A stretch of 64,000 nt of DNA from Candidatus Saccharimonadota bacterium (GTDB lineage: Bacteria > Patescibacteriota > Saccharimonadia > Saccharimonadales > Saccharimonadaceae), in assembly GCA_024402895.1 (NCBI GenBank), contig JAKSSX010000001.1:22090-86089 (forward strand). The letters are read 5' to 3'. Position numbers and translations under genes: made by a program. The notes beneath the pieces are model-generated. The model saw only the letters and a list, made by a program, of their open reading frames with translations. It did no database searches and was not told where the DNA came from. Below are positions 2,227 to 37,525 of this stretch, piece by piece. Position 1 is the stretch's first letter. Each line of letters opens with the position of its first letter.

Positions 2227-4506
2227 ATGTCAGAGAAGTATCTAGGCCTCCCGGATAAAAGTGGCGGCGACGGACAGGATTGGAACATGGATCCAAATGC
2301 TCCAAAGTCGACAGAATTAGCTATTTATGCAGCTGCTGGTGGCGAAGAAGGTCCAGCAGAGGATACTAGCACCGAAACTAATCCAGCAGAGACTAATGGC
2401 TATGAAGATGCTGACGAAGTATCTGCAGCTGATTTGCTCGTAATGAGTGGTCTTGGCAGAAACGGCGAAGGCGGTAACACTGGTGGCGAAGGCAACGGTG
2501 AAGGTAATAGTGAAGGCGATGTCGAAGGTAATGACGACAATGCTGAAACTGGCGAAAACGGTGAAGACGGTGAGTCTGAACTTGATCGTGCTCTTGGTAA
2601 TAACTATACTTCTGACATTTTTAGAGCAGCTCGTAGCATTGGTAAACCAGTTGAGAATGCTATGGATATCTTTGACTGGAGCGACGAAGACAAGCAGCGC
2701 TTGCTAGATGCTCTCGCAAATCCTGTTGAAACTGCCGATGAAGGTACTAGCGAAGGCGGCAATACTGGCGCAGTAGCTGGTGGCGCTGAAGCTGGAACTG
2801 CTACTGCAACTACAGCTGAGACTGGTAGCACCGGCGCAGCAGCTCCTGAAGCTGAAACTAGCGACTCTGAAGAAGATGATGATGCTAGAATCGCTGCAGC
2901 AATTGCCGCAGCAGGCGTAGCTGGCACGGTAGCAGCTGCCGGTGGAAATATTTCCTCCGAAGAAGCTAATAGAATGGCTGAAGAAGTAGCTGAAACTGCA
3001 GATAACGGTAATGAAAAGAAAAGACGCTCTCCTGCCTTTAAGAAAAAGGTGGCAGCAGTAATTCTAACCCTCGCTGCATTGGCTGGTATGGCTGGTCTAG
3101 GTATGAATAACGATAAAAATACCAAAGAGCAGACTACTACCGCGATTGAGGAAACTACTGACGATCAGGAAGATGGCGAGCAGAATGAGGCTCTTCGCAT
3201 CATGGACAACTATGATTACTACAATAATATCGAAGCGAAACCATCCCTTAACTCTTGGATGAATGGTTCTGAATATGTAAGTGATTTGGCAAATAGCGGC
3301 GATATTGAAATCGTAAGAGATACTGAAGGCCATCTCGAATTTGCGAATAGAGATGATGCATATAGAACGATTTTGACTGGTTTGTTCACAATGAACCAGG
3401 AGCAGGCTGGCTCAATCATGGGCTTTGCTAGAGAAGCTGGCCTCTTTAGTGCATATATGGATGAAGCAACCGTCCAGGCTGGTGAGAATGCTATTGCAAA
3501 TATGACCGAAGAAGAGCAGGCTGCAGCTATCGCTGAATGGCAGGCAGCTCTCGCAAACGCTTCCTTCGATACTGTAATTTGGCAGGGTAATGCAGATAAC
3601 TGTTACATTCGTGATAAGAGTGGCGATGCTCATATTGAGAATAGTAGTGATGCTGAAGCATGTCACTGTGTCACTGATGAGACTGGTACTCCTGTTCTTC
3701 GCGTTACTCTTGAGAACGGTCAGCAAATGTACTTCAAGTTTAACCTTGAATATTCATCTATCGAAGAAACCAAGGATGGCTACATTGTTACCTTCTTTGA
3801 TGAAAACGGTAACGAAATTAAGGTATGCTGCCAGGATCTCGATGTTGAGGGCAACCCAGTAACAAGCACTATTCCAGATACTGACCCAGATCCAACTCCA
3901 ACCCCAACTCCAGAACCAACCCCAACTCCAGACCCAGACCCAGATCCAGATCCAACCCCAACTCCAACTCCAGACCCAGATCCAACTCCAACCCCAGACC
4001 CAGATCCAACTCCAACTCCAAGTGACGAAAAGAAACCATTTACTGAAGAAGAGGTGACGAGAGGTCTTGACGGCCTTACGGTTACCGATGAGGATTCAGA
4101 GGTTGATGAGGGTGAGGTTACTGAAGCGCCTACGGAAGTTGTCGAAGGTACAGGTGGATCAACCGTAACTCCAGAAGCTACAACGCCTACCGTAGCTCCT
4201 GGCGATAACGAGCAGACCGTCGGAATGGATCCGAATTCGATGTTAAGTGGCGACGGAAGTGGTAATACTGCTGCGGAAGCTAGGGATAATGGCGATGTGA
4301 ATGGTGCTGCAAGTGGTAAAAATACGCAAGATGATTTAGGCTATACCTCCGCGGAAGACGCGGCGACCGGAGCATCTGATGCTGCCGGTGGAGCCGATGA
4401 AGTGGCGGCAAGAGAACGTGATGCTGGACTGGCAGATGAAGCTGCAAGCGTAGCAGGTATGAATGATGCTACGGCAGGAAATGGGTTCATGAATGGTGAA
4501 CTCTAA
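2227..4506 (+). CDS. large acidic low-complexity membrane/surface protein with PT/PD linker
   Basis: 759 aa. Has a G/E/N/A-rich acidic N-terminus, one hydrophobic span (AAVILTLAALAGMAGLGM), a globular middle region, a (DP/TP)n linker and an acidic tail. No family recognised. Confidence 0.7.
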   Translation: MSEKYLGLPDKSGGDGQDWNMDPNAPKSTELAIYAAAGGEEGPAEDTSTETNPAETNGYEDADEVSAADLLVMSGLGRNGEGGNTGGEGNGEGNSEGDVEGNDDNAETGENGEDGESELDRALGNNYTSDIFRAARSIGKPVENAMDIFDWSDEDKQRLLDALANPVETADEGTSEGGNTGAVAGGAEAGTATATTAETGSTGAAAPEAETSDSEEDDDARIAAAIAAAGVAGTVAAAGGNISSEEANRMAEEVAETADNGNEKKRRSPAFKKKVAAVILTLAALAGMAGLGMNNDKNTKEQTTTAIEETTDDQEDGEQNEALRIMDNYDYYNNIEAKPSLNSWMNGSEYVSDLANSGDIEIVRDTEGHLEFANRDDAYRTILTGLFTMNQEQAGSIMGFAREAGLFSAYMDEATVQAGENAIANMTEEEQAAAIAEWQAALANASFDTVIWQGNADNCYIRDKSGDAHIENSSDAEACHCVTDETGTPVLRVTLENGQQMYFKFNLEYSSIEETKDGYIVTFFDENGNEIKVCCQDLDVEGNPVTSTIPDTDPDPTPTPTPEPTPTPDPDPDPDPTPTPTPDPDPTPTPDPDPTPTPSDEKKPFTEEEVTRGLDGLTVTDEDSEVDEGEVTEAPTEVVEGTGGSTVTPEATTPTVAPGDNEQTVGMDPNSMLSGDGSGNTAAEARDNGDVNGAASGKNTQDDLGYTSAEDAATGASDAAGGADEVAARERDAGLADEAASVAGMNDATAGNGFMNGEL
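3877..4020 (+). repeat. hexanucleotide CCA-GAY / CCA-ACY tandem repeat encoding a (PD/PT)n linker
   Basis: About 24 consecutive 6-nt units, translated DTDPDPTPTPTPEPTPTPDPDPDPDPTPTPTPDPDPTPTPDPDPTPTP. Confidence 0.9.
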
Positions 4507-6472: not shown

Positions 6473-6501
6473 TTGGTATGCTTTTATGCTTGTGCTATTA
6501 T
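6473..6501 (+). promoter_or_regulatory. promoter placed for a leaderless start at 6508
   Basis: TTGGTA, 17-nt spacer, TGcTATTAT. The -10 ends 7 nt before the ATG. Confidence 0.45.
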
Positions 6502-6507
6502 ATATAC

Positions 6508-7752
6508 ATGAGTGTGGTAATTGGAGTTATTGTTGGTCTATTAATCTTAATGCTTCTTGTTACTGGGCACGAGCTCGGTCATTTTATTGCGGCACGCCGT
6601 AACGGTGTGGAGGTAGAGGAGTTCGGTATTTGTTTTCCTCCTCGCGCAATTGCTTGGCGTAAGGTCGGTGGCAAATGGCGCCGTCTTAAAAAGTCTGAGT
6701 GGGATAATCCTCCTGGAAAAGGTCTAATTCTTTCGTTGAACTGGTTACCGATTGGTGGCTTTTGTCAGATGAAAGGAGAGAGCGCTGCTGATAAATCTAA
6801 AGGCAGTTTTGGTGCCTCCTCGTTTTGGTCAAAGACAAAGATTTTGTTTGCTGGTGTTGCAGCGAACTGGTTGATGGCATTTGTGGTGCTTACTATTTTG
6901 GCTTGGGTTGGCATGCCGCATTTCCTCGATAATCAGTTTGAAATGAATGGAGATACTCAAACTGTTGTAACTACGCCAGTAACTATTGGCGAGATTAAGA
7001 GCGATAGTCCTGCGGCGAGAGCACAGCTAAGAGAGGGCGACGTCGTGATGCAGATGCGTTCTTTGGGTTGCGAAAAAGGCGAATGCGAAAATCCTGGTGG
7101 TGAGCGCGTCATGATTAATGTTGTCGATGATTTATTGTCGTTTGACGATATGTATGCCGGTCAGACGGTCTATATGACTTATGACCGTGATGGTACGACT
7201 GGTTTGGCTGAGATTACGCTTAACGATAAGACTAAAGATTTTATTCTTGGCGCTGGTATTTCCGGAAATGCGATTTATCGCAGTACGTGGAGTGCGCCAA
7301 TCGTTGGTTTTATGACAACTATGCAGATTACTGGCGAGACATTCAAAGGCGTAGGCCAGTTGGTTTGGAATCTTATTAGTGGTGTCGCAAGACAGTTGAA
7401 TTTCTTCGATCAGGGCGCACGTGAGAGCGGTGCAGAAGCGGTTAAGGCTGCCGGAGATTCAGTGAGTGGCCCAGTTGGTATTATTGGCGTATTGTTCCCA
7501 AATATGCTTTCTAGCGGCATTGGAAATCTGATGTTCTTAACTGCATTAATTTCTATTTCGCTCGCATGTATGAATGTTTTGCCAATTCCTGCGCTCGACG
7601 GTGGTCGTTGGCTATTAATACTTATTTATAAATTGCGCAAAAAAGAACTAACAAAAGAGAAGGAAGAGAAAATTGTTGGCCGCGCTTTTACCGTCTTGTT
7701 AGTGATTGTCGCAATTGTAACTATTATTGATATTACGAGGTTGGTAAAGTAA
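6508..7752 (+). CDS. rseP: RIP (site-2) zinc metalloprotease, M50 family, RseP-like
   Basis: HELGHF motif in the first TM helix. PDZ-like segment (IGEIKSDSPAARAQLREGDVV). C-terminal LPIPALDGG motif. Confidence 0.9.
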   Translation: MSVVIGVIVGLLILMLLVTGHELGHFIAARRNGVEVEEFGICFPPRAIAWRKVGGKWRRLKKSEWDNPPGKGLILSLNWLPIGGFCQMKGESAADKSKGSFGASSFWSKTKILFAGVAANWLMAFVVLTILAWVGMPHFLDNQFEMNGDTQTVVTTPVTIGEIKSDSPAARAQLREGDVVMQMRSLGCEKGECENPGGERVMINVVDDLLSFDDMYAGQTVYMTYDRDGTTGLAEITLNDKTKDFILGAGISGNAIYRSTWSAPIVGFMTTMQITGETFKGVGQLVWNLISGVARQLNFFDQGARESGAEAVKAAGDSVSGPVGIIGVLFPNMLSSGIGNLMFLTALISISLACMNVLPIPALDGGRWLLILIYKLRKKELTKEKEEKIVGRAFTVLLVIVAIVTIIDITRLVK

Positions 7753-21594: not shown

Positions 21595-22386
21595 ATGAAG
21601 ATCGTCTCTTGGAATGTGAATGGAATTAGGGCAGTTCTCGGTAAGGGCGCCTTGCAGGGTTTTATTGAGAAATATCAGCCTGATGTTTTGTGTTTGCAGG
21701 AGACGAAGGCTAAACAGGGGCAGGCCGAGGTAGATTTTGCTGAATATGAAGAGATTTGGAATTCGGCCGAGCGTGCTGGTTATTCCGGCACGGCGATTTT
21801 TACAAAAAAGAAGCCGCTAAGCGTGCGTTTTGGCTTTTTGCCAGAGCAGGACGGTTTGGATGGCTGGCAGGATGAATTTGGCGATGCTCGTACAGAAGGC
21901 CGTGTTTTGACGGCCGAATTCGAGGATTTTTATCTCGTGAATGTCTATGTTCCGAACGAAAAAGACGATTTGGGTCGCTTGAAATATCGCGAGAAGACTT
22001 GGGATGTGGCACTTTTGAGCTATATGAAAGAGTTGGATAAGACGAAGCCTGTTGTGGTTTGCGGTGATTTTAACGTGGCGCACGAAGAGATCGATTTGGC
22101 GCGTCCAGCGCAGAATGAAGGTCATGCTGGATTCACGAAATCTGGCCGCCAGGGCATGACGAATTTTTTGAGTAATGGCTTTATTGATACGTGGCGCGAG
22201 GCTCATCCAAACGAGCAAAAATATAGTTGGTGGTCTTATCGTGGTGGCGCAAGGCAGAGAAATGTAGGCTGGAGAATTGATTACTTTTTGGCTAGCGAAC
22301 GCCTACGCGAACAGATTAAAAGTGCTGAAATTTACGACGAAGTAATGGGTTCCGATCACTGCCCAGTAATGTTGGAGGTAGCATGA
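21595..22386 (+). CDS. xth: exodeoxyribonuclease III
   Basis: MKIVSWNVNGIRA, LCLQETK, GDFNVA and SDHCPV motifs. Confidence 0.95.
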   Translation: MKIVSWNVNGIRAVLGKGALQGFIEKYQPDVLCLQETKAKQGQAEVDFAEYEEIWNSAERAGYSGTAIFTKKKPLSVRFGFLPEQDGLDGWQDEFGDARTEGRVLTAEFEDFYLVNVYVPNEKDDLGRLKYREKTWDVALLSYMKELDKTKPVVVCGDFNVAHEEIDLARPAQNEGHAGFTKSGRQGMTNFLSNGFIDTWREAHPNEQKYSWWSYRGGARQRNVGWRIDYFLASERLREQIKSAEIYDEVMGSDHCPVMLEVA

Positions 22387-23183
22387 ACGATAACTTAGAT
22401 TATTGGCATCGCCAGAGTTCAAAAAAGTTATTCAATGACATTGATTTGATGGCGCCGGAGCAGCGTCGCTTTGCGGGGAAGTTGCTAATTATTGGCGGTA
22501 ATAAAGGTATGTTCTTTGCCGTTGCTAGTACGTTGGAAGCGGCGAAACGCTTTGGCGTGGGTGAGGTTCGTGCTTTGATGCCAGATGCGCTTAAGAATCA
22601 GGTTCCTACTACGCCAGAATTATATTTTGCAGAGGCGGAGGCTTCTGGTGCGTTTGGTAGATCTGCGCTTCAGGAAATGTTGCGCCAGGCCGAGTGGTCC
22701 GATGCGGTTTTATTGGTTGGCGACAGTGGCAAGAATGCTGAAACTACCCTTGTTTTTGCAGAATTTATGGAGAAATGTCAGAAGCCAGTATTCGTAACGC
22801 GCGATGCGGTTGAAGCAGTAACTCCTTCGGCGATTGATTGGGCGATGCGCGAGTATGAGACGGGTTTGCTTTTGACGATGCCGCAGCTCCAGAAGCTGCT
22901 GCGCACGATGTATTATCCGAAAGTCATTACGCTTTCAATGCCAACGAATCAGCTCGTCGAGGCGCTCCATAAGTTTACTTTGAGCTATCCGGTTTCGATT
23001 ACAACTTATCATAACGATTTGATTATTACCGCTCAGAACGGGGAAGTTGTGACGCAGAGTATTACCGAGACGAAGTGGACTCCGATTTCGCTTTGGGGTG
23101 GCACTTTGTTTGCGCAGGTGATTATTGCGCGTCTTTGGAATGCAGAAAAAGACTTTTATAAAGTGCTTGCTAGCTCTCTATAG
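22383..23183 (+). CDS. YjeF_C / NAD(P)HX-dehydratase-like protein with degenerate active-site motifs
   Basis: GKLLIIGGNKGMFFAVASTLEAAKRFGVGEV aligns by eye to the VLVIGGS..GA..LA..AALR.GAGLV pattern. The DADAL, TPH.GE and GSGD positions read TRDAV, TMPQLQ and WGGT. Confidence 0.5.
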   Translation: MNDNLDYWHRQSSKKLFNDIDLMAPEQRRFAGKLLIIGGNKGMFFAVASTLEAAKRFGVGEVRALMPDALKNQVPTTPELYFAEAEASGAFGRSALQEMLRQAEWSDAVLLVGDSGKNAETTLVFAEFMEKCQKPVFVTRDAVEAVTPSAIDWAMREYETGLLLTMPQLQKLLRTMYYPKVITLSMPTNQLVEALHKFTLSYPVSITTYHNDLIITAQNGEVVTQSITETKWTPISLWGGTLFAQVIIARLWNAEKDFYKVLASSL

Positions 23184-23228
23184 GGTTAATCTGTGATATA
23201 ATTATTGGGAAAGCTTTGGAGGTTTTTT

Positions 23229-25874
23229 ATGTGCGGAATTGCAGGGTGTTTTGCCTTTGACAATACGAAAGAAATTTTGACAAAAATGAGTGATGCGATG
23301 ACGCATCGCGGCCCCGATGGCTCTGGTGAAACCAGTTATTCGGAAAATGGTATAAAAATCGGATTAGCTCATCGCCGTTTGGCGATTATTGACCGTGCCG
23401 CTGGTAAGCAGCCAATGAAGTCGGTTAATAATCCTAAATACGAGATCGTTTACAATGGTGAAGTTTACAACTATGTTGAGCTTCGCGAAGAGCTTCTCAA
23501 AGAAAATCCAAAATTAAAGTTCAGCACCAACTCTGATACCGAGGTCGTGCTTGAGGCTTATATTCAGTGGGGCAGCAAAGCCTTTGATAAGTTCAACGGT
23601 ATGTTTGGCTTGGCTATTTTGAACCGCGAAAAAGACGAAGTTGTGCTAGCGCGTGACCACTTCGGTATTAAGCCAGTTTATTATTACGAAAAAGATGGTA
23701 AAGTTCTTTTTGCCTCTGAAATTAAGACTATGCTAGCCTCCGGCGTTGTCGAGACAGAGCCAAACGATAAGATTGTTTACCGCTATCTTAAATTCCGCGT
23801 TCAAGATGATACGAACGAGACTTTCTTTGCGAATATTTATCGCCTTATGCCTGGCGAAATGATGACCATTAATAAGAATGGCTCAAAGCGCAAAATGTAT
23901 ACTAAATTGCGTGAAGAATTGGTTGAACTCGCGAAGAATCCTAAAAAATATAGTCCTGAAGTTGCTGCGGAATATGGCGAGCGTCTTGATAAGGCAGTTC
24001 GCATGCGCTTGGTTGGTGAGGTTCCAGTCGGTACATCTCTATCTGGCGGTCTAGATTCTTCATCTGTCGCTGCTTTGATTGCGAAGAATCTCGAAAAAGA
24101 TGCTAGCGACAAGGATTTGGAATCTGTTGGTTCACGCCAGAATACTTTCTCGGCGGTCTTCCCAAATCTCAGTAATGACGAGGAAGAATATGTTGATGCT
24201 TTGATTAATAAGTATCCAAATAAGATCAAATCCCATAAGATTAAGCCAACCCCAGAAGACTTCTTGAAGGATTTGCAAGATTTCGTCCGCACTCAGGAAG
24301 AGCCGATTATTAGTACTGGCCCATACGCTCAGTATGCAGTTATGCGTGAAGCTTCAAAGCATGTTACCGTCTTGCTCGATGGCCAGGGCGCTGACGAAAT
24401 GATGGCTGGTTATAATCCTTACTATTATGTCTATCTAAATCAGCTAAAGAGTCGCAAGCAATACGGCGCTTTGATGGCTGAAACCACCAAATCTAGCGAT
24501 ATCGTAAAGAAGATTTTGCGTGGCAAGAGGCAGAAAGTTAAGCCAGTTACTAACTTGATGCAACCAGAGTTTGCAGAAAAGTATAGCGACGAAAAGATGG
24601 TTGTTATCAATAATAATCTCAAGATGCGTTTGCTAGATGACATCTTCAAACACAGCTTGCCGTCATTATTGCGCTATGAAGATCGTAATACGATGCGCTT
24701 CAGTCTTGAAGGTCGCGTCCCGTTCATTGATAAGGAGCTCTTGAAATACTTATTCAGCCTCGATGATGACGCAATCATTCACGGCGGTTGGAATAAGAAT
24801 ATTCTTCGCGACTCTATGAAGGGCATCTTGCCGGAGAAGATTCGTGCTCGCCGCAATAAGATTGGCTTTACGACTCCTGAGGGTGAATGGTTTAAGACGA
24901 TCCATAAAGATCTAGAAAAAATCTTGGCATCTGATGAATTTGCTCATCGTAAGTACTTTAATCAGCTAGAAGTATTGCGCGAGTTCAAGCTCGACGAGAA
25001 GGGTAAAGGCAGCTACGGCTCCATGGCCTTCTGGCGCATTATTAACGTTGAATTGTGGCTCCGTGAGTTCTTCGATGAAAAACCAGACGAGAATGCGCCA
25101 AAGCCAGAAGAATTGGGTTATGCGCCTAATGACGGCAAGAAAGCCGAGATCAAATCCGACGTTAATAATAAGGTCTATACGCGCTATATGCTCAGAACTG
25201 AGCTTGTAACGCCAGAAACGGTCCTTGACGATTATATTAATCGTTACGTCGGCGCCTTTGCAAAGACTATGAATAAAGAGGTCGGCAAGCGTAAATGGCA
25301 ACTTTACATTAGTGAAAAGATTATTGCAACCATGCAGGGTCGCTCATACTTCCTATGGGACGTTGACGCTCGCTGGTCGGCACGTGTTTTGAGTCGTTTT
25401 GTTCATCGCACTCCAGCAGGTATTGGTCTTGGTAATCCAGCAACGATGGAGCTCGCTCTTCGCGAGGCCGGTACTCCAAGAATCCTTCTTGCTACCGTAG
25501 CTAGCGCAGCTGGTAAGGCAGTCGGTAAGCGCGGTGTATTCTATAACGTCGCTGGCGCAAACGTTCGCGCAATTGATGGCCCAACTTCATATTCGGCATA
25601 TCCAGCAAACGTTTCTGCGAAGTTGCCACCAAAGGATCCAGATGTCGTTGCAGAACATATCGCAGTCTTGATTCGCGAGAATGAGAAGATTGCAAAGAGC
25701 CTACGCGACAACTTTGAAGGTGTTGTAGTGATCGATTCTAACGATATTGGCCGCAACATTTTAGGTAAGGCTTGCTCTGATGAAGATGCACTACTTGCTT
25801 CGAAGTTTGCAGATAACCCATTCGGTCAGGCAAGACAGCTTACGCCAATGGCAATCGTAGTCGAGAATGACTAA
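23229..25874 (+). CDS. asnB: asparagine synthase (glutamine-hydrolysing) fused to a C-terminal CofE-like (gamma-glutamyl ligase-like) domain
   Basis: MCGIAG Ntn nucleophile, SLSGGLDSS PP-loop, GGAGG Shine-Dalgarno. An extra 234 aa at the C-terminus (nt 25170-25871). Confidence 0.88.
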   Translation: MCGIAGCFAFDNTKEILTKMSDAMTHRGPDGSGETSYSENGIKIGLAHRRLAIIDRAAGKQPMKSVNNPKYEIVYNGEVYNYVELREELLKENPKLKFSTNSDTEVVLEAYIQWGSKAFDKFNGMFGLAILNREKDEVVLARDHFGIKPVYYYEKDGKVLFASEIKTMLASGVVETEPNDKIVYRYLKFRVQDDTNETFFANIYRLMPGEMMTINKNGSKRKMYTKLREELVELAKNPKKYSPEVAAEYGERLDKAVRMRLVGEVPVGTSLSGGLDSSSVAALIAKNLEKDASDKDLESVGSRQNTFSAVFPNLSNDEEEYVDALINKYPNKIKSHKIKPTPEDFLKDLQDFVRTQEEPIISTGPYAQYAVMREASKHVTVLLDGQGADEMMAGYNPYYYVYLNQLKSRKQYGALMAETTKSSDIVKKILRGKRQKVKPVTNLMQPEFAEKYSDEKMVVINNNLKMRLLDDIFKHSLPSLLRYEDRNTMRFSLEGRVPFIDKELLKYLFSLDDDAIIHGGWNKNILRDSMKGILPEKIRARRNKIGFTTPEGEWFKTIHKDLEKILASDEFAHRKYFNQLEVLREFKLDEKGKGSYGSMAFWRIINVELWLREFFDEKPDENAPKPEELGYAPNDGKKAEIKSDVNNKVYTRYMLRTELVTPETVLDDYINRYVGAFAKTMNKEVGKRKWQLYISEKIIATMQGRSYFLWDVDARWSARVLSRFVHRTPAGIGLGNPATMELALREAGTPRILLATVASAAGKAVGKRGVFYNVAGANVRAIDGPTSYSAYPANVSAKLPPKDPDVVAEHIAVLIRENEKIAKSLRDNFEGVVVIDSNDIGRNILGKACSDEDALLASKFADNPFGQARQLTPMAIVVEND

Positions 25875-25916: not shown

Positions 25917-26528
25917 TTATTTTTTAGCTGACCACTCAATAGCACTACGGCAAGCTTTACAGTTGCCTACGGTACCCGTAATATGATTTGCTTTACCGCA
26001 GCTAGGGCATTTAACTACGTGAGGAGTTGCTTGATCGGAAGGGTCTGCTTCGCGGCCATCTTTGCGCATAACTGGAGTTCTTTTTGGCTCAGTGCCGCTT
26101 GTGGCACGAGCAGAATTGCCCATAGAAGCCATTCTAATGGCCTGTGAGACGAAGTTAGCGACTTTGCTAAGTATTTGACTAGCTATAAGCATAATGATGC
26201 TAAAAATGGCTGTCCAGCGGCCAAAATCGGTAAGCTTAGCGAATAGCGGATGTGTGCGGAAGTCGATAAATGGTTGGAAAACAGGAATAGATTCACCGAA
26301 ATTCTGCTGAAGAAGCTCGTAGCCGCGTGGCGCTAAGCAGAGAAGAGCGACAATAAGAATAAAGAATGGTACGCGGTAGTAGCGGTGGCTGCCATAAATG
26401 AAAAGGCGTGCAATAGTTAGCATGACGCCGAGAGGTGGCACGAAATAAAGAGTAATAATGATGACCGGTAAGCTACAGATTAGCTTAGGAATGGACGGCA
26501 ATCTAAAACTAAAATTTTGAATATTCAT
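25917..26528 (-). CDS. membrane protein with C-terminal zinc-ribbon
   Basis: Four or five TM spans, then CPSCGK...NCKACRS. Starts 14 nt after the sortase stop. Confidence 0.6.
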   Translation of the reverse strand: MNIQNFSFRLPSIPKLICSLPVIIITLYFVPPLGVMLTIARLFIYGSHRYYRVPFFILIVALLCLAPRGYELLQQNFGESIPVFQPFIDFRTHPLFAKLTDFGRWTAIFSIIMLIASQILSKVANFVSQAIRMASMGNSARATSGTEPKRTPVMRKDGREADPSDQATPHVVKCPSCGKANHITGTVGNCKACRSAIEWSAKK

Positions 26529-26542
26529 AAGCTTATTTTAGC

Positions 26543-27841
26543 TTATTCTTGGCCAGTTAGCCACTTCCAGAATTGAGTTAGAGGTGGATCGTCGTTTCTT
26601 GGCATATCTTGATTGTCATCTCCGCTCTCTTCAATAGGAGTTTCTTCTTCAGAGGCGCCTTCATAGCTAGGATGAATCTGCTCGCCGTAAACCAAGAGGC
26701 GATACTTTGATGTACCGAGTGGAGTACAGGTGATAAGAGTGATCATAGGTTTGCCTGGGTTATTCTTTGCGATTTCGCGAAGTGATGCGGAATTCGAAGG
26801 ATCGACGGTGCGAGTGCCGGTAACGCGATAAGTGTAGCGCTGACCATTGTAATCGACATAGATGAGGTCGCCGCTACCCATGCGAGTAAGACCAGAGAAG
26901 ATGAATTTGTAATCAGACTGCTGATAGATGTTGCCTGCGGAGTGGCCGGAGATGGCAAAGTTGCCAACCTCGCCAGGTTTTGCGGAAGCGCCGCGAATAG
27001 AGAAGTGGGCGACACCATTGCCCATAGCATTTGCCATGGAGTTTAGATCGTTTTTGGAGCCGAAAACGATTGGAACTTCGACATTAAGCTTCGGAATCAT
27101 GAGAGTTGGTTTCTCGTGGATGTTTGCCGAAACGGTAGGATCGATGGCGGTAATATCGTTTACTTCTGTGCCGCCAGGAGACATGTAGGCGACGGCATTA
27201 GCAATAATGACCTGATTGTACTGGAAAAGAAGACCGAGAATGAGAATAGAAAAACCAATAGCTAGTGGTATGAAATGGCGAGACTTGCGCATTTTCTTGG
27301 CGCGCTTGGCGACTTTTTTCTGGATTCTAGCTTTGAAATCATTCTGCGTAGCTGTGGTTTCTTTGACGGAAGGAGCTTGTGGGGCAGGAGTAGCTGTCGC
27401 GTTAGAAACGATAGCGGCACGTTCCTCGGCTGCTTTTGATTCGCGTTCAGCAATATCTCTTTCGATCTTGAGACGCTCGCGCGCAACATATTCTTTAGCG
27501 GCGCGACCATAATATTCGCCATAGTATTTCTGATAATAATCTTGCCATGCAGAATGATACTTCCGCCAATCCTCGGTTTTAATCTGAGGAGCGGGAGCTT
27601 CTTTGGTTGGTTCGCGATAATTTTGCGGCTGATGTTTGTAGGCTTCTAGAACTTTTTGGCGGGCGATGTTAGCAGCAGTTTGTTGCTGTTTTTGGGCAGC
27701 AGTAGGCTCGGTCGATTTCGGTTTTTGCGCGACCTGACCATTGGCGGCTTTTTGTGCCGCAGCCTGACCCCAAGCATTCCAACTCGGAGGAGTACTAGAT
27801 TGCCCACCATTTTTGTTATCCATTACTTCATATTCTAGCAT
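26543..27841 (-). CDS. sortase (transpeptidase) with long N-terminal cytoplasmic extension
   Basis: Catalytic TLITCTP, ISGHSAG His motif, TM HFIPLAIGFSILILGLLF, and a roughly 185-aa Q/A/K/Y-rich N-terminal region. The exact start is uncertain. Confidence 0.88.
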   Translation of the reverse strand: MLEYEVMDNKNGGQSSTPPSWNAWGQAAAQKAANGQVAQKPKSTEPTAAQKQQQTAANIARQKVLEAYKHQPQNYREPTKEAPAPQIKTEDWRKYHSAWQDYYQKYYGEYYGRAAKEYVARERLKIERDIAERESKAAEERAAIVSNATATPAPQAPSVKETTATQNDFKARIQKKVAKRAKKMRKSRHFIPLAIGFSILILGLLFQYNQVIIANAVAYMSPGGTEVNDITAIDPTVSANIHEKPTLMIPKLNVEVPIVFGSKNDLNSMANAMGNGVAHFSIRGASAKPGEVGNFAISGHSAGNIYQQSDYKFIFSGLTRMGSGDLIYVDYNGQRYTYRVTGTRTVDPSNSASLREIAKNNPGKPMITLITCTPLGTSKYRLLVYGEQIHPSYEGASEEETPIEESGDDNQDMPRNDDPPLTQFWKWLTGQE

Positions 27842-27883
27842 ATAGGGAGTTTTTATGCTAAACTATTATTATATTTCTACTGC

Positions 27884-27970
27884 GGGCGAGTGGTGGAATT
27901 GGTAGACACGCTAGACTCAAAATCTTGTGACAGCAATGTCGTGAGGGTTCAAGTCCCTCCTCGCCCACCA
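27884..27970 (+). tRNA. tRNA-Leu (anticodon CAA)
   Basis: Acceptor GGGCGAG/CTCGCCC, anticodon loop CTCAAAA, long variable arm, T-loop GGTTCAAGTCC, encoded CCA. Confidence 0.9.
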
Positions 27971-27978
27971 ATAAAGAA

Positions 27979-28000
27979 AACACCGAAAGGTGTCTTTTTT
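27979..28000 (+). terminator. terminator after tRNA-Leu
   Basis: ACACC gaaa GGTGT followed by TTTTTT. Confidence 0.6.
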
Positions 28001-28002
28001 GT

Positions 28003-28036
28003 TATAAAAAATAACCCCTCCGAAGAGGGGAATTTT
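28003..28036 (-). terminator. terminator of the 28037-29548 gene
   Basis: CCCCTC cgaa GAGGGG, with the T-run on the minus strand. Confidence 0.75.
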
Positions 28037-29548
28037 TTATAGTAGGGCTTTGCGTTTTAGAATAAACTTCGTTACGGTTTCTGGCGTATTTACGACGTCT
28101 GAATCGGAAGGTGTATCTTTGTCAGTTTCTTTAACGACTTCTTGTTCGACCATGTCGAAGAAGTAGAGCCATTTATTATTTTCGGTAATGATGACCGGGA
28201 GTTGATTGCTGACGTTGGAGATAATTTTACGGCGATTATAACCGTCAAAGTCACGAATAATAATAGAACTATCTACGTTTTGCCAGAGAATATAATCGTC
28301 GATCCAGTTGATGTTGGAAAGTGTAGCGGTAAGCTCCGTATCGAAGTAATCTTTTGTCTCGATATCGTAGCTAGTCATCTTGTTGTCGCCAGCAAATACG
28401 GCGATACGCTGGCTTGCGTTAACGGAGAGATGCTGAGGAATGTAATCGAGTTCTCGATCGAGGCGTGATTTTAGTTTTGAAACTTCATTTTTGCCGTAGG
28501 AAGGGTATTTGCCGCCTAGGATATGAATCTTCTTATCTGTGCTATAAGCAATCCAATCCTCATTCCAATAGGAACCCATTGCTAATTTGATAGTGGTTTC
28601 GTCGGTAGCTTTTTCGAGCTTCACGATAGAAGTATAGCCTTTTTCGCCGTCTTTATAGATATTGAGATGGCGGACGTCGTTTTCGATATTAACAAAGGCA
28701 ACGGTATCGCGATTATGTGCGACTTTTTCAAGATTTGACGCAATGGCACTAGAAATCGTTAAGCTGCTAGCGTCGATTAGGCGAAGATTGCCACTTTCGA
28801 GTGCCCAAAGTTTGCTTGCTGAATCGTTCGCAATTAGGATGCTATCGAAAGAAAGATTGAAACGTTTGCTAAGATTGATGCTCGCATCGCTATGTTCGAG
28901 GTCAATAAGATGCCAACTAGTTTTATCATCTACGGTCCATTTGGCGATAATTTTGGAGTTGTTTTCATTCCAGGCGACGATAGAGATAGTACCTTCGATT
29001 GCTTTAATAGCGGTAGTGCTGAGGCAATCATTGAGGTTGGACTTTGTAGTCTTAAGGCTATCGCCTTGAATATCAATATACTGTAAAGTATTGCTGCCGT
29101 TTTCGATAAGAACGAGTTTCTTGCGATTAGCAGAGAAAGCAGCTAAACGAGTGTCATTGAAAGTCTGAACTTTTTCGAACTTTGCCTTCTTAGGGAAGAG
29201 GCGGATCCATTCGACGCGAGTGAGAAGACCGGCGTCAACTTTGAGGTCTTTGGTCCAAGTATCATAGTCTTGCTTTGAAACTGAGATTTTATGTGTGCCG
29301 GCGCTAATCATCTTGCTGAATTCGGTATGACCGAACTGAGTATCGCCGTCAATTGTAACATTGGCACCGGAAGGGTGTGAGACAAGTTGAGCGAGACCGG
29401 CCTGTTCGAGACTGCCGGATTCAGTAAAAGTAAAGCCCATAGCTATCATCATTAAAATAAAGACAATTGCGACTACGGAAATACACATAAAAATGTTTGT
29501 CGCAATAACGCGAAGGTCGCGCATATGTTTGGATTTAGATCGGTTCAT
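28037..29548 (-). CDS. membrane-anchored PEGA-domain protein with large beta-rich ectodomain
   Basis: N-terminal TM. SHPSGANVTIDGDTQFGHTEF...GTHKISVSKQDYDTW matches the PEGA pattern. Confidence 0.7.
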   Translation of the reverse strand: MNRSKSKHMRDLRVIATNIFMCISVVAIVFILMMIAMGFTFTESGSLEQAGLAQLVSHPSGANVTIDGDTQFGHTEFSKMISAGTHKISVSKQDYDTWTKDLKVDAGLLTRVEWIRLFPKKAKFEKVQTFNDTRLAAFSANRKKLVLIENGSNTLQYIDIQGDSLKTTKSNLNDCLSTTAIKAIEGTISIVAWNENNSKIIAKWTVDDKTSWHLIDLEHSDASINLSKRFNLSFDSILIANDSASKLWALESGNLRLIDASSLTISSAIASNLEKVAHNRDTVAFVNIENDVRHLNIYKDGEKGYTSIVKLEKATDETTIKLAMGSYWNEDWIAYSTDKKIHILGGKYPSYGKNEVSKLKSRLDRELDYIPQHLSVNASQRIAVFAGDNKMTSYDIETKDYFDTELTATLSNINWIDDYILWQNVDSSIIIRDFDGYNRRKIISNVSNQLPVIITENNKWLYFFDMVEQEVVKETDKDTPSDSDVVNTPETVTKFILKRKALL

Positions 29549-32070: not shown

Positions 32071-32538
32071 ATGTTTTGGGATCTCATAAAAGTTTTTCTA
32101 GTCTCGATGGTGCCATTGATTGAGCTTCGTGGTGCTATTCCGATGTCGCAATTAATGCATTTGCCGATAATTCCGTCTTACATTGTAAGTATTATTGGTA
32201 ACATGTTGCCTGTGCCGTTTATTTATCTTTTTGCAGCTAGATTGCTTGAATGGGGTAAAGATAAGAAGCTTATTGGCAAGTTTTGCTCTTGGTGTCTAAA
32301 GAAAGGGCATCGTGCAGGTAAAAAACTTTCAGAGAAAGCGGGCGAAAAAGGCGCTTTCATTGCATTGCTTCTGTTTGTAGGTATTCCGCTTCCTGGTACT
32401 GGTGCTTGGACTGGTACATTGGCGGCAAGTTTCCTTGGTATTGGTTTTAAGAAATCAACACTCGCGATTATGCTAGGTGTGCTATTGGCTGGTATTATCA
32501 TGATGGTCGCTAGCGCATGTGGAGTTGCATTACTATGA
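32071..32538 (+). CDS. small membrane protein, COG2426 / small multidrug-export-like
   Basis: IELRGAIP motif and four TM spans. Confidence 0.55.
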   Translation: MFWDLIKVFLVSMVPLIELRGAIPMSQLMHLPIIPSYIVSIIGNMLPVPFIYLFAARLLEWGKDKKLIGKFCSWCLKKGHRAGKKLSEKAGEKGAFIALLLFVGIPLPGTGAWTGTLAASFLGIGFKKSTLAIMLGVLLAGIIMMVASACGVALL

Positions 32539-33383
32539 CGGTAGAGAAAAAGACCGAGAAGAAGACGGCTGTTAAGAAAGTGGTCGCCAAAAAGGCTATA
32601 AAAGAAAAAACGCCAAGATTTAAGAATTCCGTAAAGGGAAAGAATAATAGGCCAGAACTTAAAGTGTCTCGTGGTTATTTTGCTTTTTCGATTATTACGA
32701 TGATGTCGGAACTGCTAGTAATAATTGTTCTAACTATGGCGCTAACTTCGATTGGTAATGGTCCTAAGTATGTAATGGATAATGCTGGTAACATAACAAA
32801 AGTTCGCGAAGATAAGCCGGTAAAGAACGGCACTATTCTTGAAACTGATAGAGTTGTAGGCAATCCAGATTCTAAGGTTGCATTCATTTGGTATGTCGAT
32901 ATGCAGTGTCCGGCATGTGCTCAGATGGCTCCACTCGTTAATGAACTTTATTCTCGTTATGGTGATCGGGTCGCATTTGCAACGCGTTATCTAGAAATTT
33001 CTGGCCATAATTATACTCGTCCAGCAACTATAGCCGTCGAAGCGGCAAGGCGCCAGGGATACTTCTGGGTTATGCTCATGGAAATGTTCGAGCAGAGAGG
33101 TGAATGGGCTTACGTAAATAGTAATGAGATGCTGACGGAGCGTTTTGAGAAGATTTTTGTTGACGCTACTGACGGTAAGGGTGATTTAGCCAAATTTGCT
33201 GCAGATATGGCAGACGAATCGATTGCTTCAGTTATTGATATTGATAGAAGAATGGTAATTGAGGACAGTCTAAACTTTACGCCTACGATTATTATTGATG
33301 GTATGAATATTGACTTTGCTGGTGGCTCCGAGAGTGTGGTTGATATGTTTACAAAAGCTATCGACGAAGCATTAGCGAAATAG
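32535..33383 (+). CDS. membrane-anchored DsbA-like thiol:disulfide oxidoreductase
   Basis: N-terminal TM, CPACAQ active site, thioredoxin-fold pattern (TPTIIIDG). Confidence 0.8.
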   Translation: MTVEKKTEKKTAVKKVVAKKAIKEKTPRFKNSVKGKNNRPELKVSRGYFAFSIITMMSELLVIIVLTMALTSIGNGPKYVMDNAGNITKVREDKPVKNGTILETDRVVGNPDSKVAFIWYVDMQCPACAQMAPLVNELYSRYGDRVAFATRYLEISGHNYTRPATIAVEAARRQGYFWVMLMEMFEQRGEWAYVNSNEMLTERFEKIFVDATDGKGDLAKFAADMADESIASVIDIDRRMVIEDSLNFTPTIIIDGMNIDFAGGSESVVDMFTKAIDEALAK

Positions 33384-33408
33384 TCTCGCTTTTGATATCA
33401 TAATTGGT

Positions 33409-34182
33409 ATGAATGAACAAAAAACTAAGTCTCATACCGGTGCGATTATTGCGATTATTGCTTCTAGTATCGTAATTGCTTCGGCTATTGTTGCTTTGGC
33501 ATTATTGTTGCCAAAGTCTACTTCGGGTGAAAATAAAGATGGCGATACATCGTCGCTCAACAAAAAAGATGAACCTACTGAGCCTATTGCGAGTGATGAC
33601 GATAATGCAGGCATTATTGCGCCGAGCAGCGAAAATGGTAATATTGGTGATCATGTTCGCGGTAAACGTGATTCGAAGGTATTGGTTGTCGAGTATGCCG
33701 ATCCTCAATGTCCAGGTTGCGCATCAATGATGCCAAAGATGGATTCGATCTATGAAAAATATAAGGATAAGGTTGCTTTTGTTTACAGACACTATCCTCT
33801 CGCGATGCATCAGAATGCTGAATCTGCAGCTATTGCAATTGAGGCGGCCGGTCAGCAGGGCTATTTCTGGGAGATGTTAGAGTTAGTATTTAGTAAACGT
33901 AGTAGCTGGATTTCATTGAGTAGTAACACATCGCTAACGAATGCTTATAGTAAGCTATTTAAGGAAGCTTCTAATAATAAAGGCGACGTTGATAAATTTG
34001 AGAAAAGTTTAGGCGATTCAGAACTTAAAACTAAGGTTAGCTTCGATAAGAAGAAGGGCATGGAAGATGAGTTATCATATACGCCAACAATCTTAGTAAA
34101 CGGCGAAGAAGTCGACTTTACAAGTAGTAGCAATCCTCAAAAAGTAATTGAAGATGCTATTAAAAAAGCATTAAACAAATAA
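33409..34182 (+). CDS. membrane-anchored DsbA-like thiol:disulfide oxidoreductase (paralogue)
   Basis: CPGCAS active site. QGYFWEML and TPTILVNG are shared with the upstream gene. Confidence 0.8.
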   Translation: MNEQKTKSHTGAIIAIIASSIVIASAIVALALLLPKSTSGENKDGDTSSLNKKDEPTEPIASDDDNAGIIAPSSENGNIGDHVRGKRDSKVLVVEYADPQCPGCASMMPKMDSIYEKYKDKVAFVYRHYPLAMHQNAESAAIAIEAAGQQGYFWEMLELVFSKRSSWISLSSNTSLTNAYSKLFKEASNNKGDVDKFEKSLGDSELKTKVSFDKKKGMEDELSYTPTILVNGEEVDFTSSSNPQKVIEDAIKKALNK

Positions 34183-35621: not shown

Positions 35622-35972
35622 ATGGCTACAAAAAAGCCAGCAGCGAAGAAAACCAGCGCTGTAAAAAAGACTTCCAGTGCAGCTAAGAGCGGCAGTACTG
35701 CGAAGAAGGGTAGCAGCATCGCATCCAAGGCTAGGATGATCTATGCTGAAAAACATCCCGAAAAGCACCAGGCAACTGGTAAATATAAATTTTTCTACAT
35801 CTTATTTGCATGTACGACTTTGTTCTTTGCTGCATTGTCAGTAGAGCTCTTCGTAATTGCTAGCGAAGTAGAGAGCAAATATGAAACTATAGAATCTTGT
35901 ACGCGTGCGCACACTAAATGTAATGTACGCCTAGAAGATGGCAATATTAATGTTGAAGGAAGTGAGGAATAA
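35622..35972 (+). CDS. small membrane protein with AKK-rich N-terminus
   Basis: GGAGGG Shine-Dalgarno, K/A/S-rich 50 aa, then one TM. Confidence 0.55.
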   Translation: MATKKPAAKKTSAVKKTSSAAKSGSTAKKGSSIASKARMIYAEKHPEKHQATGKYKFFYILFACTTLFFAALSVELFVIASEVESKYETIESCTRAHTKCNVRLEDGNINVEGSEE

Positions 35973-37525
35973 TGAGCGAAGATAATATTCTTGGTGGCGC
36001 ACAACCTGTTGCTCCAGCAGAACCTACTACGCCAGAAGAGCCAGTTTCCCAGCCAGAAACTGCTCCAGTTGAAGAAGTTGCAGCACCTGAGAAGACTCCA
36101 GAAGAGTTAGCTGCAGAAGAAGCAAAGGCAGAAGAAGAATTCATTTCTACCCCAGAAGATACGGTAGAGAATCCTTTGGTTGAGCCAGAATCAGTTGAAG
36201 AAACTGTAGAGCCAGAAGCTCCAATTCTAGAAGGTGCTATTGGTTCCGGCAATCTTCAGTCAAACCAGAAAGAAGAAGAAGTTGCTTCAGCTCCTGTAAG
36301 CAACGAGCTAAATGCTGCTTCTCAGGCTGTTGAGAATGCTATGGCTGCAAATGCTACTAGTACTGTAGCTGGCGAGCCAAAAAAGAAATCAAAGAAGGGT
36401 CTAGTAATCACTCTAATTATTGTATTCCTTCTTTTGATTGGCGGCGGTGTTGCTTTCCTTATCTGGTTCTTAATGGGAAATAGCCCTGAAAATATGCTTA
36501 AAGACGCTCTTTCTAAGATTTGGGATGCCGAAAATGTTCAGGCAACTGCAACTTTGGATGTAACCAATGACAAGGGCGAGAAAATCAATCTTACTCTCGA
36601 CGGCGTTCTAGCTGGTGCTGACGTTAGCGGTAGCGGCAAGATTAAGACCAAGCAGGATGGTAAGGATATTGAGATTGAATTTAGTGCTGCTTATTCCAAG
36701 GACGGTGCAGCTTACTTCAAATTCACCGGTCTCAAGAAGCTTGTTGAAGGTCTAACTGGTTCTTCTTCTAGTGACGACGAAGATGATGAAGACGGCACAG
36801 GCGCTATGGTTGCTATGCTTTCCGGTCTTCTCGGTGGCGTCGTAGAAAAGATTGATGGTGAATGGTATAAGGTCACTGCTTCTGAAGCTAAGGACATGGG
36901 TAGTGATGAAATCTCTTGTGTTCTCGAAAATATGAAGGGCGTCATGGATCCTTCTACGAAGAAAGAAATCAAGAGTATCTATGAGAAGAATCCATTCCTC
37001 GTAGTTAAGAAAGATGCTAACGTCGAAGAAAAAGATGGCGTTAAATACATCAAGGTTACTGTAGATAAAGAAAAATCCAAGAGCTTTGCTGACGAAACTA
37101 AGAATATTGATAGCTTAAAGAAGATTGCAGCTTGCTCAACTAGTGACGAAAAAGATGATGAAAAGGAAGAGAAATCTGAACCTGTAATCACTTTAGGCGT
37201 TAAGTCTATGGGTCATGAGCTTGTTTCTATGAACGTCAAGCAGGACGAAAATAGCATGGATGTAAAGCTCACCTATGATAAGAAAGATGCATCTATTCCA
37301 AGTGACGCAAAGAACATTGACGACCTTAAGGAAGCAATTGCCGAAGGTATTAAAGATGGTATTGGCAACTTTGCTCAGGCTATGTGTGAAGCTCAGTACG
37401 GCGATTATGGCCAGCAATTCGTAGATCTTTGTAAGAGCCAGGCTATGAGCGAGATGGGCGATATCGATGCAGACACTCTACTAAAGAATTTAAACTTTGG
37501 TGGCAGTAGCTCTATTGACCTCTAA
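35972..37525 (+). CDS. membrane-anchored acidic protein
   Basis: P/E-rich N-terminus, TM (LVITLIIVFLLLIGGGVAFLIWFL), and a roughly 350-aa D/E/K-rich ectodomain. No family recognised. Confidence 0.65.
   Translation: MSEDNILGGAQPVAPAEPTTPEEPVSQPETAPVEEVAAPEKTPEELAAEEAKAEEEFISTPEDTVENPLVEPESVEETVEPEAPILEGAIGSGNLQSNQKEEEVASAPVSNELNAASQAVENAMAANATSTVAGEPKKKSKKGLVITLIIVFLLLIGGGVAFLIWFLMGNSPENMLKDALSKIWDAENVQATATLDVTNDKGEKINLTLDGVLAGADVSGSGKIKTKQDGKDIEIEFSAAYSKDGAAYFKFTGLKKLVEGLTGSSSSDDEDDEDGTGAMVAMLSGLLGGVVEKIDGEWYKVTASEAKDMGSDEISCVLENMKGVMDPSTKKEIKSIYEKNPFLVVKKDANVEEKDGVKYIKVTVDKEKSKSFADETKNIDSLKKIAACSTSDEKDDEKEEKSEPVITLGVKSMGHELVSMNVKQDENSMDVKLTYDKKDASIPSDAKNIDDLKEAIAEGIKDGIGNFAQAMCEAQYGDYGQQFVDLCKSQAMSEMGDIDADTLLKNLNFGGSSSIDL

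Follow-up and report, generated by a model that had tools for sequence, protein, structure and literature searches.

An asparagine synthetase-like amidotransferase fused to a CofE-fold domain in Saccharibacteria: a candidate amide-bond-forming enzyme outside F420 synthesis

The stretch of DNA analyzed here (the window) is 64,000 nucleotides (nt) long and comes from a Candidatus Saccharimonadota bacterium (contig JAKSSX010000001.1). Its plus strand carries a gene that joins, in one polypeptide, an amidotransferase of the asparagine synthetase B (AsnB) type to a C-terminal domain with the fold of CofE, the F420-0:gamma-glutamyl ligase. The listing of open reading frames (ORFs) of the window gave one uninterrupted ORF at 23205-25874 (+), in which the start ATG at 23229 yields a product of 881 aa with the N-terminus MCGIAG. 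Amidotransferases of the N-terminal nucleophile (Ntn) class require Cys as residue 2. The ORF, domain and fold evidence confirmed the initial annotation of this DNA in its central claim, a genuine single-ORF fusion of the two parts.

The possibility that a frameshift or an assembly error had joined two separate genes, raised in the same annotation, was excluded. The NCBI protein MCQ2570675.1 (Candidatus Saccharibacteria) is identical to the 881-aa window protein. Its cluster at 90% identity has 33 members, and all 15 members listed, which come from independent assemblies, are 881 aa long. Together with the intact ORF and the exact NCBI protein, the constant length in independent assemblies therefore ruled out an artefact. 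The features of the gene are as follows.

23229-25874, plus strand: complete fusion gene, stop codon included (881 aa), labeled 'asparagine synthase (glutamine-hydrolyzing)' by NCBI
23229-23873, plus strand: class-II (Ntn) glutaminase domain, aa 1-215 (Pfam GATase_7 and GATase_6), with Cys2, R50, N76-G77-E78 and D103
23976-25064, plus strand: Asn_synthase (PP-loop ATP-pyrophosphatase) domain, aa 250-612 (Pfam PF00733, E 6.6e-68)
24042-24062, plus strand: PP-loop SGGLDSS, aa 272-278, from the sequence and the family alignment
24384-24386, plus strand: codon of Q386 in the motif DGQGADE, aligned with E348 of E. coli AsnB and E364 of human ASNS
25071-25127, plus strand: interdomain linker, aa ~615-633, from comparison of homologues between WLREFFD and the start of the ligase-like domain
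25128-25871, plus strand: CofE-superfamily ligase-like domain, aa 634-881, starting at a conserved PNxGK, from profile, fold and family evidence
25575-25577, plus strand: D783, aligned by hhalign with CofE D109
25734-25742, plus strand: D836-S837-N838, aligned by hhalign and a hidden Markov model (HMM) with CofE D150-T151-N152
25827-25829, plus strand: Q867, aligned by hhalign with CofE E208

The C-terminal domain had been assigned to CofE (PF01996) by eye, from five motif blocks. Taken alone, the window domain matched profile positions 34-137 of the 218 of PF01996 at E 0.0094, with 15.9 bits against a gathering cut-off of 25. None of the NCBIfam models reached its cut-off on this domain, and the sole match at E<=1 was a weak NqrC model (E 0.098). 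A large protein database held 669 homologues of the domain, many with a precomputed PF01996 match, and 20 of 22 aligned relatives matched PF01996 at E<=0.01 (best E 3.2e-12). A profile of a short subfamily from the Candidate Phyla Radiation (CPR), designated A2, retrieved CofE from the PDB sequences at E 0.005, aligning SEKIVAITQGR with CSTVISKAEGR and KLAPKDPDKVA...VVIIDAN with LLPPLDPDGSA...VIITDTN. A broader family profile, A1, retrieved no CofE from the PDB sequences at E<=1.

An alignment of 45 family sequences was compared by hhalign with the A. fulgidus CofE sequence, which was taken from a printed PDB alignment. The match had a probability of 95.7% and E 8.4e-9 and extended over 179 columns, nearly the whole enzyme. 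The HMM and hhalign alignments reproduced all five blocks seen by eye, the tail of the fifth (GR...) being a few residues out of register.

The AlphaFold2 model of aa 628-881 had a predicted local distance difference test score (pLDDT) of 91.8 and a predicted template-modeling score (pTM) of 0.87. Foldseek against the PDB gave significant matches only for the CofE structures 2phn, 2g9i and 7uld (E 6e-7 to 2e-5; probability 1.00; template-modeling score 0.39-0.49), and the best match outside CofE had E 0.6. Because the relatives match PF01996, the family alignment matches CofE by hhalign and the Foldseek matches are to CofE only, the domain belongs to the CofE superfamily. The earlier assignment thus stands at superfamily level, and at that level only; as a Pfam assignment of the window domain itself it does not.

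Compared with CofE and with FbiB's N-terminal domain (2PHN, 2G9I, 7ULD), the window domain shares the same rare fold and the blocks S/K...(E/Q)GR, I-D109, LPPxDPD and D150-x-N. In contrast, identity is 13-15% in structural alignments and 23% over the hhalign columns, and the window family occurs in CPR bacteria taken as F420-less, usually fused to an AsnB-like protein. Residues D109, D150, T151 and E208 of CofE are reportedly its Mn2+ ligands (Nocek et al. 2007). The numbering of these four residues agrees with the PDB sequence and with the G153-C155 segment described for CofE (PMC10861534). The counterparts D783 and D836 were invariant in 81 of 81 fused sequences, as was the Gln at the position of E208. 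The counterpart of T151 is S837 here and Ala in most of the CofE-like family.

Two segments of CofE were found to differ by hhalign. CofE residues ~70-100 are replaced by a family-specific, highly conserved insert, RTPxGIGLGxPxTMxLAxxExG...K...GxFY. The counterpart of residues ~155-200 appears from the aligned sequences to be ~20 residues shorter. In CofE, this region holds F420 and glutamate sites and dimer contacts, with F420/glutamate binding around G153-C155 and a glutamate pocket at the dimer interface (PMC10861534). Judging from these alignments, the domain is a distinct branch of the CofE superfamily; it probably keeps the nucleotide- and metal-dependent core for carboxylate activation and has a different substrate site.

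The full-length AlphaFold model had pLDDT 80 and pTM 0.76. Confidence dropped in the conserved ligase loops at aa 727-732, 785-794 and 866-869 of this monomer model. This would fit an active site that is completed by dimerization, as in CofE.

The initial annotation had described the AsnB half as standard, which was not borne out. Pfam placed GATase_7 at aa 48-169, and GATase_7 and GATase_6 together covered aa 40-169. The glutaminase residues C2, R50, N76-G77-E78 and D103 are present here and invariant in the intact family members. In NCBIfam, the half passed TIGR01536 (asn_synth_AEB; 411.2 bits against a trusted cut-off of 267.1), and its second-best match was TIGR03104, the amidotransferase of N-acetylglutaminylglutamine amide (NAGGN) synthesis (321.9 bits against a cut-off of 570.1). 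Its top solved relative was the hydroxyamidotransferase 7ylz (E 2.4e-52), followed by E. coli AsnB 1ct9 (E 3.7e-38).

The departure from the standard form lies in the substrate pocket. Alignments to 1ct9 and 8sue/6gq3 showed that the motif S-G-E-G-S-D-E of E. coli AsnB and human ASNS reads D-G-Q-G-A-D-E here, with Q386 in place of the essential Glu. This Gln was invariant among 30 full-length homologues (alignment A4). Among 81 fused sequences, the position was Gln in 53, His in eight and Glu in two, both of the latter with degenerate AsnB halves. In human ASNS, the aspartyl-holding pocket was modeled as E364, D367 and E368, and both E364A and E364Q were inactive (PMC6748925). Since Q386 replaces this Glu and the human E364Q enzyme is inactive, the altered pocket would imply a substrate other than free L-aspartate. 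Glutamine hydrolysis would appear to be retained from the residues present, and adenylation of a carboxylate probably is.

Set against asparagine synthetase B (1CT9, 6GQ3), the window protein thus has the same Ntn Cys and glutaminase residues, PP-loop SGGxDS and two-domain layout, and passes TIGR01536. It differs in the Gln at E348/E364, in its 250-aa C-terminal ligase-like domain and in forming a subfamily of its own.

Whether the combination of AsnB with a CofE-like domain exists elsewhere was a question raised by the initial annotation; it does, and it is not rare. When one genome per GTDB species was scanned, at least 581 species had a relative of the CofE-like domain, and the closest 80 loci were nearly all single ORFs of ~870-950 aa with both halves. 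The carriers among these 80 loci included Saccharibacteria, Woesebacteria and Nomurabacteria in the CPR, Coriobacteriales, Actinomycetaceae (Schaalia, Gleimia), Dermabacteraceae (Brachybacterium, Dermabacter, Helcobacillus), Dermacoccaceae, Intrasporangiaceae and Microlunatus. An exhaustive profile search of 1.84 billion cluster representatives gave 1288 proteins at E<=1e-3, 275 of them at E<=1e-30; the 1288 were a mixture of full-length fusions and standalone proteins of 220-300 aa.

The best 120 homologues of the AsnB half (53-100% identity) were 859-938 aa long and covered both halves, except for two partial sequences. All those that carried a name were called 'asparagine synthase', and seven of the 120 had a PF01996 hit. 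In Coriobacteriales, an unfused AsnB paralogue that adjoins the fusion was 31% identical to the fused half. Because the best homologues of the AsnB half span both halves, and the adjacent AsnB is only 31% identical, the fusion is one coherent, co-evolving orthologous group and not an ordinary AsnB with an appendage.

The literature searched, including transposon sequencing (Tn-seq) work on Southlakia and transcriptome work on TM7x, gave no description of the family or of its architecture. What is new here is a branch of the CofE fold outside F420 synthesis, in most cases joined to a specialized AsnB paralogue; its sequences are already abundant in databases.

The two halves of the fusion were not equally conserved. 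In about 10 lineages, for example some Brachybacterium, Dermabacter and Microlunatus, the AsnB half lacked Cys2 and the PP-loop and showed 17-35% identity (loci L020, L021, L024, L028, L041, L048, L052, L056, L064 and L085, and cluster P0014 from Micrococcus luteus). The Micrococcus luteus proteins, of ~430-510 aa, have no room for a complete AsnB half. The Terrabacter/Humibacillus group retained Cys2 and the PP-loop, with R50 and N76 changed and His at position 386 (DGHGGDE). Judged from these changes, its glutaminase may be impaired. This DGHGGDE subtype was seen at L035, L036, L049, L063, L066, L068, L073 and L074 (Terrabacter, Terracoccus, Humibacillus and an unclassified Intrasporangiaceae bacterium).

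The CofE-like domain of all these decayed or changed lineages was 49-56% identical to the window domain, and D783, D836 and Q867 were unchanged. Standalone CofE-like proteins of 230-285 aa were found in Actinopolymorpha, Roizmanbacteria, Uhrbacteria and many other CPR genomes. Since the AsnB half decays beside a conserved ligase-like domain, and the latter also stands alone, the ligase-like domain is the constrained core and the AsnB module a frequent but dispensable partner. Counted from WLREFFD, with which the AsnB fold ends, up to the ligase-like domain, the segment varied from 46 to 93 aa across homologues, and the linker segment in Brachybacterium was rich in Ala, Pro and Glu.

Gene neighborhoods were compared at 80 genome loci and, for the standalone CPR subfamily, at 82 metagenomic loci. 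One standalone CofE-like gene lies directly 5' of mraZ-rsmH-ftsI. At standalone CPR loci, M23 peptidase genes were found 4-30 nt upstream on the same strand, genes for penicillin-binding proteins (PBPs) convergent at 3-5 nt, and PAP2 genes divergent. The fusion lies between eno and divIC in Actinomycetaceae and is followed by a PcsB-like NlpC/P60 gene at one Coriobacteriales locus. A fusion of the CofE-like domain with GNAT overlaps the 5' end of a MurJ gene, and in the window genes for a sortase and a PEGA-domain protein lie downstream of the AsnB fusion on the other strand. PBP, PAP2, M23 and S41 genes made up 13 of 143 immediate neighbors and four of 160 genes at distances above 3 kb (Fisher p 0.02 for an odds ratio of 3.9, with kinship of the loci ignored).

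These neighborhoods are suggestive, not decisive, in pointing to cell-wall biogenesis. Of the candidate substrates that the initial annotation had listed (a peptidoglycan stem peptide, a teichoic-type polymer, a folate-like cofactor or a peptide), peptidoglycan alone gained support, and that weak. The neighbors in Actinobacteria (guaA, NUDIX, PIG-L, LPG_synthase_TM, dapA-rnj, HAD and FadD) look like lineage-specific synteny.

Genes of another kind also recurred. A ClpC-like gene was present 3' of the fusion, on the same strand and ~350-750 nt away, at six of 13 CPR loci from three classes (L008, L013, L014, L023, L038 and L045), and the Schaalia fusion (L018) lies between ClpC and ClpB. The window locus does not have the ClpC-like arrangement. 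In some genomes, standalone genes lie 3' of an M48/HtpX-like peptidase gene or of lexA.

We interpret the window protein as a two-module amide-bond-forming enzyme, distinct both from a housekeeping asparagine synthetase and from F420 enzymes, that acts on a cell-envelope precursor. This overall reading we consider a little short of an even chance; that the target is specifically peptidoglycan is distinctly less probable. In the proposed scheme, ammonia would be freed from glutamine at the glutaminase site (Cys2). The PP-loop domain would adenylate a carboxylate, which ammonia would then amidate, on the product of the ligase module or on a related molecule. The ligase module, by analogy with CofE, would dimerize and would use a nucleoside triphosphate (NTP) and a divalent metal held by D783 and D836 to convert a carboxylate into an acyl phosphate, which would then be coupled to an amine. 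Such NTP- and metal-dependent ligation of a carboxylate to an amine via an acyl phosphate is the chemistry of CofE (PMC8498797, PMC10861534).

The substrate of the ligase module would be other than F420, and a variable linker would tether the two modules. The preferred substrate would be a cytoplasmic precursor of the cell envelope, for example the stem peptide or cross-bridge of peptidoglycan, to which the ligase would add an amino acid while the AsnB module would amidate a remaining carboxylate. What the analysis shows is which domains are present, their fold, the conserved residues, the distribution and the unity of the fusion; catalytic competence, nucleotide use and the class of substrate we infer. 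The two-step modification of one carboxylate-bearing substrate by both halves, as put forward in the initial annotation, is plausible. The most specific form of the proposal, which we regard as doubtful, makes the CofE-like domain a second, non-F420 branch of the CofE fold, a conserved ligase of CPR and Actinobacteria that would tailor peptidoglycan precursors, perhaps with a dicarboxylic or other amino acid, with the AsnB module amidating the product or supplying ammonia in the manner of MurT/GatD.

As precedents, the Aslfm/AsnH pair and MurT/GatD come nearest to the scheme among the systems known to us. C. glutamicum LtsA, B. subtilis AsnB and L. lactis AsnH are AsnB paralogues whose target for amidation is a carboxylate on a wall precursor and not free aspartate. 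In enterococci and lactococci, the D-aspartate ligase Aslfm and AsnH carry out ligation and then amidation of a cross-bridge residue, which by description is the ligase-then-amidation logic proposed here; unlike the fusion, they are separate proteins, and the ligase has an ATP-grasp fold and not that of CofE. In MurT/GatD, a ligase-type subunit that forms an acyl phosphate and a glutaminase that supplies ammonia amidate a peptidoglycan carboxylate. That pair differs in its folds, those of a Mur-ligase-like subunit and a class-I glutaminase, whereas the window protein also has a complete PP-loop adenylation domain.

Several observations weigh against the envelope-precursor interpretation. The exchange of E208 for Gln and of T151 for Ser or Ala leaves room for a metal site different from that of CofE; metal binding or chemistry may differ, or the domain may bind without catalyzing. 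That the linker varies and that the AsnB half has decayed in about 10 lineages suggests that the halves need not be an obligatory pair or share a substrate. The full-length AlphaFold model does not show how the two domains dock. Clustering of the ORFs in the 80 genome loci found no partner shared across phyla, and at the 82 standalone metagenome loci no partner gene occurred in more than eight. The wall-gene enrichment had an odds ratio of only 2.4 (p 0.15, kinship of the loci again ignored) when genes within 1.5 kb were counted. The recurrence of ClpC, HtpX-like and LexA genes beside the gene is a competing theme of stress and proteostasis.

The stress-type neighbors would suit an osmolyte or stress metabolite, and with it a different product: a small amidated peptide or metabolite like NAGGN, in which the ligase forms the peptide bond and the AsnB module amidates the terminal carboxylate. 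The NAGGN cassette consists of an amidotransferase, a GNAT/ligase and a peptidase, the same cast that is seen in CofE-like fusions with GNAT (three samples) and M20 peptidase (two samples), and TIGR03104 is the second-best NCBIfam match. The NAGGN pathway (AsnO and Ngg; the TIGR03104 'trio') resembles the fusion in combining an AsnB-like amidotransferase with a ligase that forms a peptide bond, with GNAT and metallopeptidase partners appearing here as rare fusions. However, the TIGR03104 score is far below 570 and comparable to the scores of unrelated AsnB subfamilies, Ngg does not have the CofE fold, and no three-gene cassette was found in the window or the related loci. Likewise, no osmolyte-type transporter or regulator recurs in the neighborhoods, the GNAT fusion is in an apparent operon with MurJ, and very high conservation in CPR bacteria of minimal metabolism is not expected of an accessory osmolyte. 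We consider this product unlikely. The Clp neighbors would also fit a CofE-like domain that modifies proteins, placing an amino acid on a protein carboxylate as a tag or mark tied to Clp-dependent proteostasis. The six CPR loci and the Schaalia arrangement agree with this, as do the M20 fusion convergent with ClpC and the standalone genes after M48/HtpX-like peptidase or lexA. Yet the adjacency may be inherited synteny and is the whole of the case; the window has no such Clp arrangement, AsnB-type chemistry would have no obvious role, and we know of no CofE-fold enzyme that acts on proteins. Protein modification is very unlikely.

The database label implies a genuine asparagine synthetase, with the CofE-like domain as a regulatory, nucleotide-sensing or oligomerization module. 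NCBI and JGI annotation agree on it, TIGR01536 is passed at 411 bits against 267, and the protein retains Cys2, the glutaminase residues and an intact PP-loop. Against it stand Q386, at the Glu whose change to Gln inactivates human ASNS; D783 and D836, invariant at the reported metal-ligand positions of CofE in a domain that is standalone in many genomes; and the fact that in several lineages it is the AsnB half that decays and not the C-terminal domain. These points make the label quite unlikely to describe the function. A true CofE, adding a gamma-glutamyl tail to F420 or to a close deazaflavin or folate-like cofactor, has in its favor the homology to PF01996, the fold and the conserved SxK...QGR, IDG, LPPxDPD and IDxN blocks. 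The domain falls below the Pfam cut-off, though, and passed no NCBIfam model; the A1 profile retrieved no CofE from the PDB, the F420/glutamate-binding segments are replaced or shortened, and E208 is Gln. The initial annotation had not expected an organism of this type to make F420, and a review of F420 distribution indeed names no Patescibacteria or Saccharibacteria among the predicted producers (PMC8498797). No F420 gene family was found among the 30 window ORFs scanned, a search confined to the 64-kb window. Because no NCBIfam CofE model matches, the binding segments are replaced or shortened and the host is a saccharibacterium, the window protein does not appear to be an F420 ligase, and a true CofE is hardly credible here.

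If the tailoring of envelope precursors is the correct reading, the CofE-like ligase would be a missing enzyme of wall biosynthesis and would offer a plausible ancestor for CofE. The label 'asparagine synthase' in hundreds of genomes is probably wrong in function and overlooks a 250-aa domain of catalytic type. Until now, one reaction has been linked to the CofE fold, the glutamyl tail of F420, and a large conserved branch without F420 means that the fold does something else. This branch bears on where CofE came from, an origin that has been called unclear (PMC8498797). An 881-aa enzyme that Saccharibacteria and other CPR bacteria retain with their minimal genomes likely matters for their cell biology. 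Proteins of the window type are ~55% identical in Actinobacteria, including Actinomycetaceae, to which belongs Schaalia, the host genus of the cultivated TM7x. The fusion may be important to the cell envelope and, through it, to the epibiotic lifestyle. Lineages in which the AsnB half has repeatedly decayed next to an unaltered ligase-like domain amount to a clean natural experiment on the question of which module does the essential work.

Possible expression signals of the fusion gene itself were read by eye upstream of its start.

23194-23222, plus strand: extended -10-like element TGATATAAT at 23194-23202 (TGnTATAAT-like) and Shine-Dalgarno sequence GGAGG at 23218-23222

A consensus promoter scan did not list the site at 23194-23202 because it has no -35 match. 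Upstream, 21595-23183 (+) holds an Exo_endo_phos (XthA-like) gene and, overlapping it by 4 nt, an ORF of 266 aa that matches no Pfam family and ends 45 nt before the fusion gene. This pair may or may not share a transcript with the fusion.

The CofE-like domain was also seen with other partners. The GNAT fusion (P0204; L091-L093) was found in three samples and overlaps the start of the MurJ gene, in an apparent operon; the Peptidase_M20 fusion (P0210; L094-L095) was found in two samples and is convergent with ClpC. Further putative fusions were to adenylate kinase, HD_4 and CDP-alcohol phosphatidyltransferase (P0232, P0197 and P0261).

At the CPR loci with a ClpC-like gene, this gene is preceded by an ORF of 125-142 aa with no Pfam match, and in three of them a VIT1 gene follows. 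The ClpC-like ORF that was scanned (L045) has no Clp_N domain, and the small ORF might be a split-off ClpC N-domain. At two actinobacterial standalone loci (L001 and L087), the gene follows lexA at a distance of ~45 nt on the same strand, within a conserved region with lexA, LysM, nrdR and a class II ribonucleotide reductase; SOS co-regulation of this gene is possible. The commonest close neighbor in Intrasporangiaceae was an LPG_synthase_TM (PF03706) membrane protein gene, ~550 nt downstream on the opposite strand at L053 and 18 other loci, and this adjacency may be lineage synteny.

Downstream of the fusion in the window, a convergent ORF at 25917-26528 (-) encodes a protein of 203 aa that matches no Pfam family; its N-terminal part is hydrophobic, and a CxxC...CxxC motif like that of a zinc ribbon lies C-terminally. 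It was compared with a 205-aa protein downstream of the Roizmanbacteria standalone gene, and the two are unrelated. Two 424-aa ORFs of the window, at 46-1320 and 6478-7752, were likewise considered as repeats and found to be unrelated. The ORFs of 759 aa at 2227-4506 (+) and 517 aa at 35972-37525 (+) had no Pfam match at E<=1e-4. Beyond the convergent ORF, also on the strand opposite to the fusion, 26543-29548 (-) holds genes for a sortase with an N-terminal extension of ~245 aa and for a PEGA-domain protein of 503 aa, with a tRNA-Leu(CAA) gene between them at 27884-27970 (+). Tandem Thioredoxin_4/DsbA-like paralogues of 288 and 257 aa are encoded at 32517-34182 (+).

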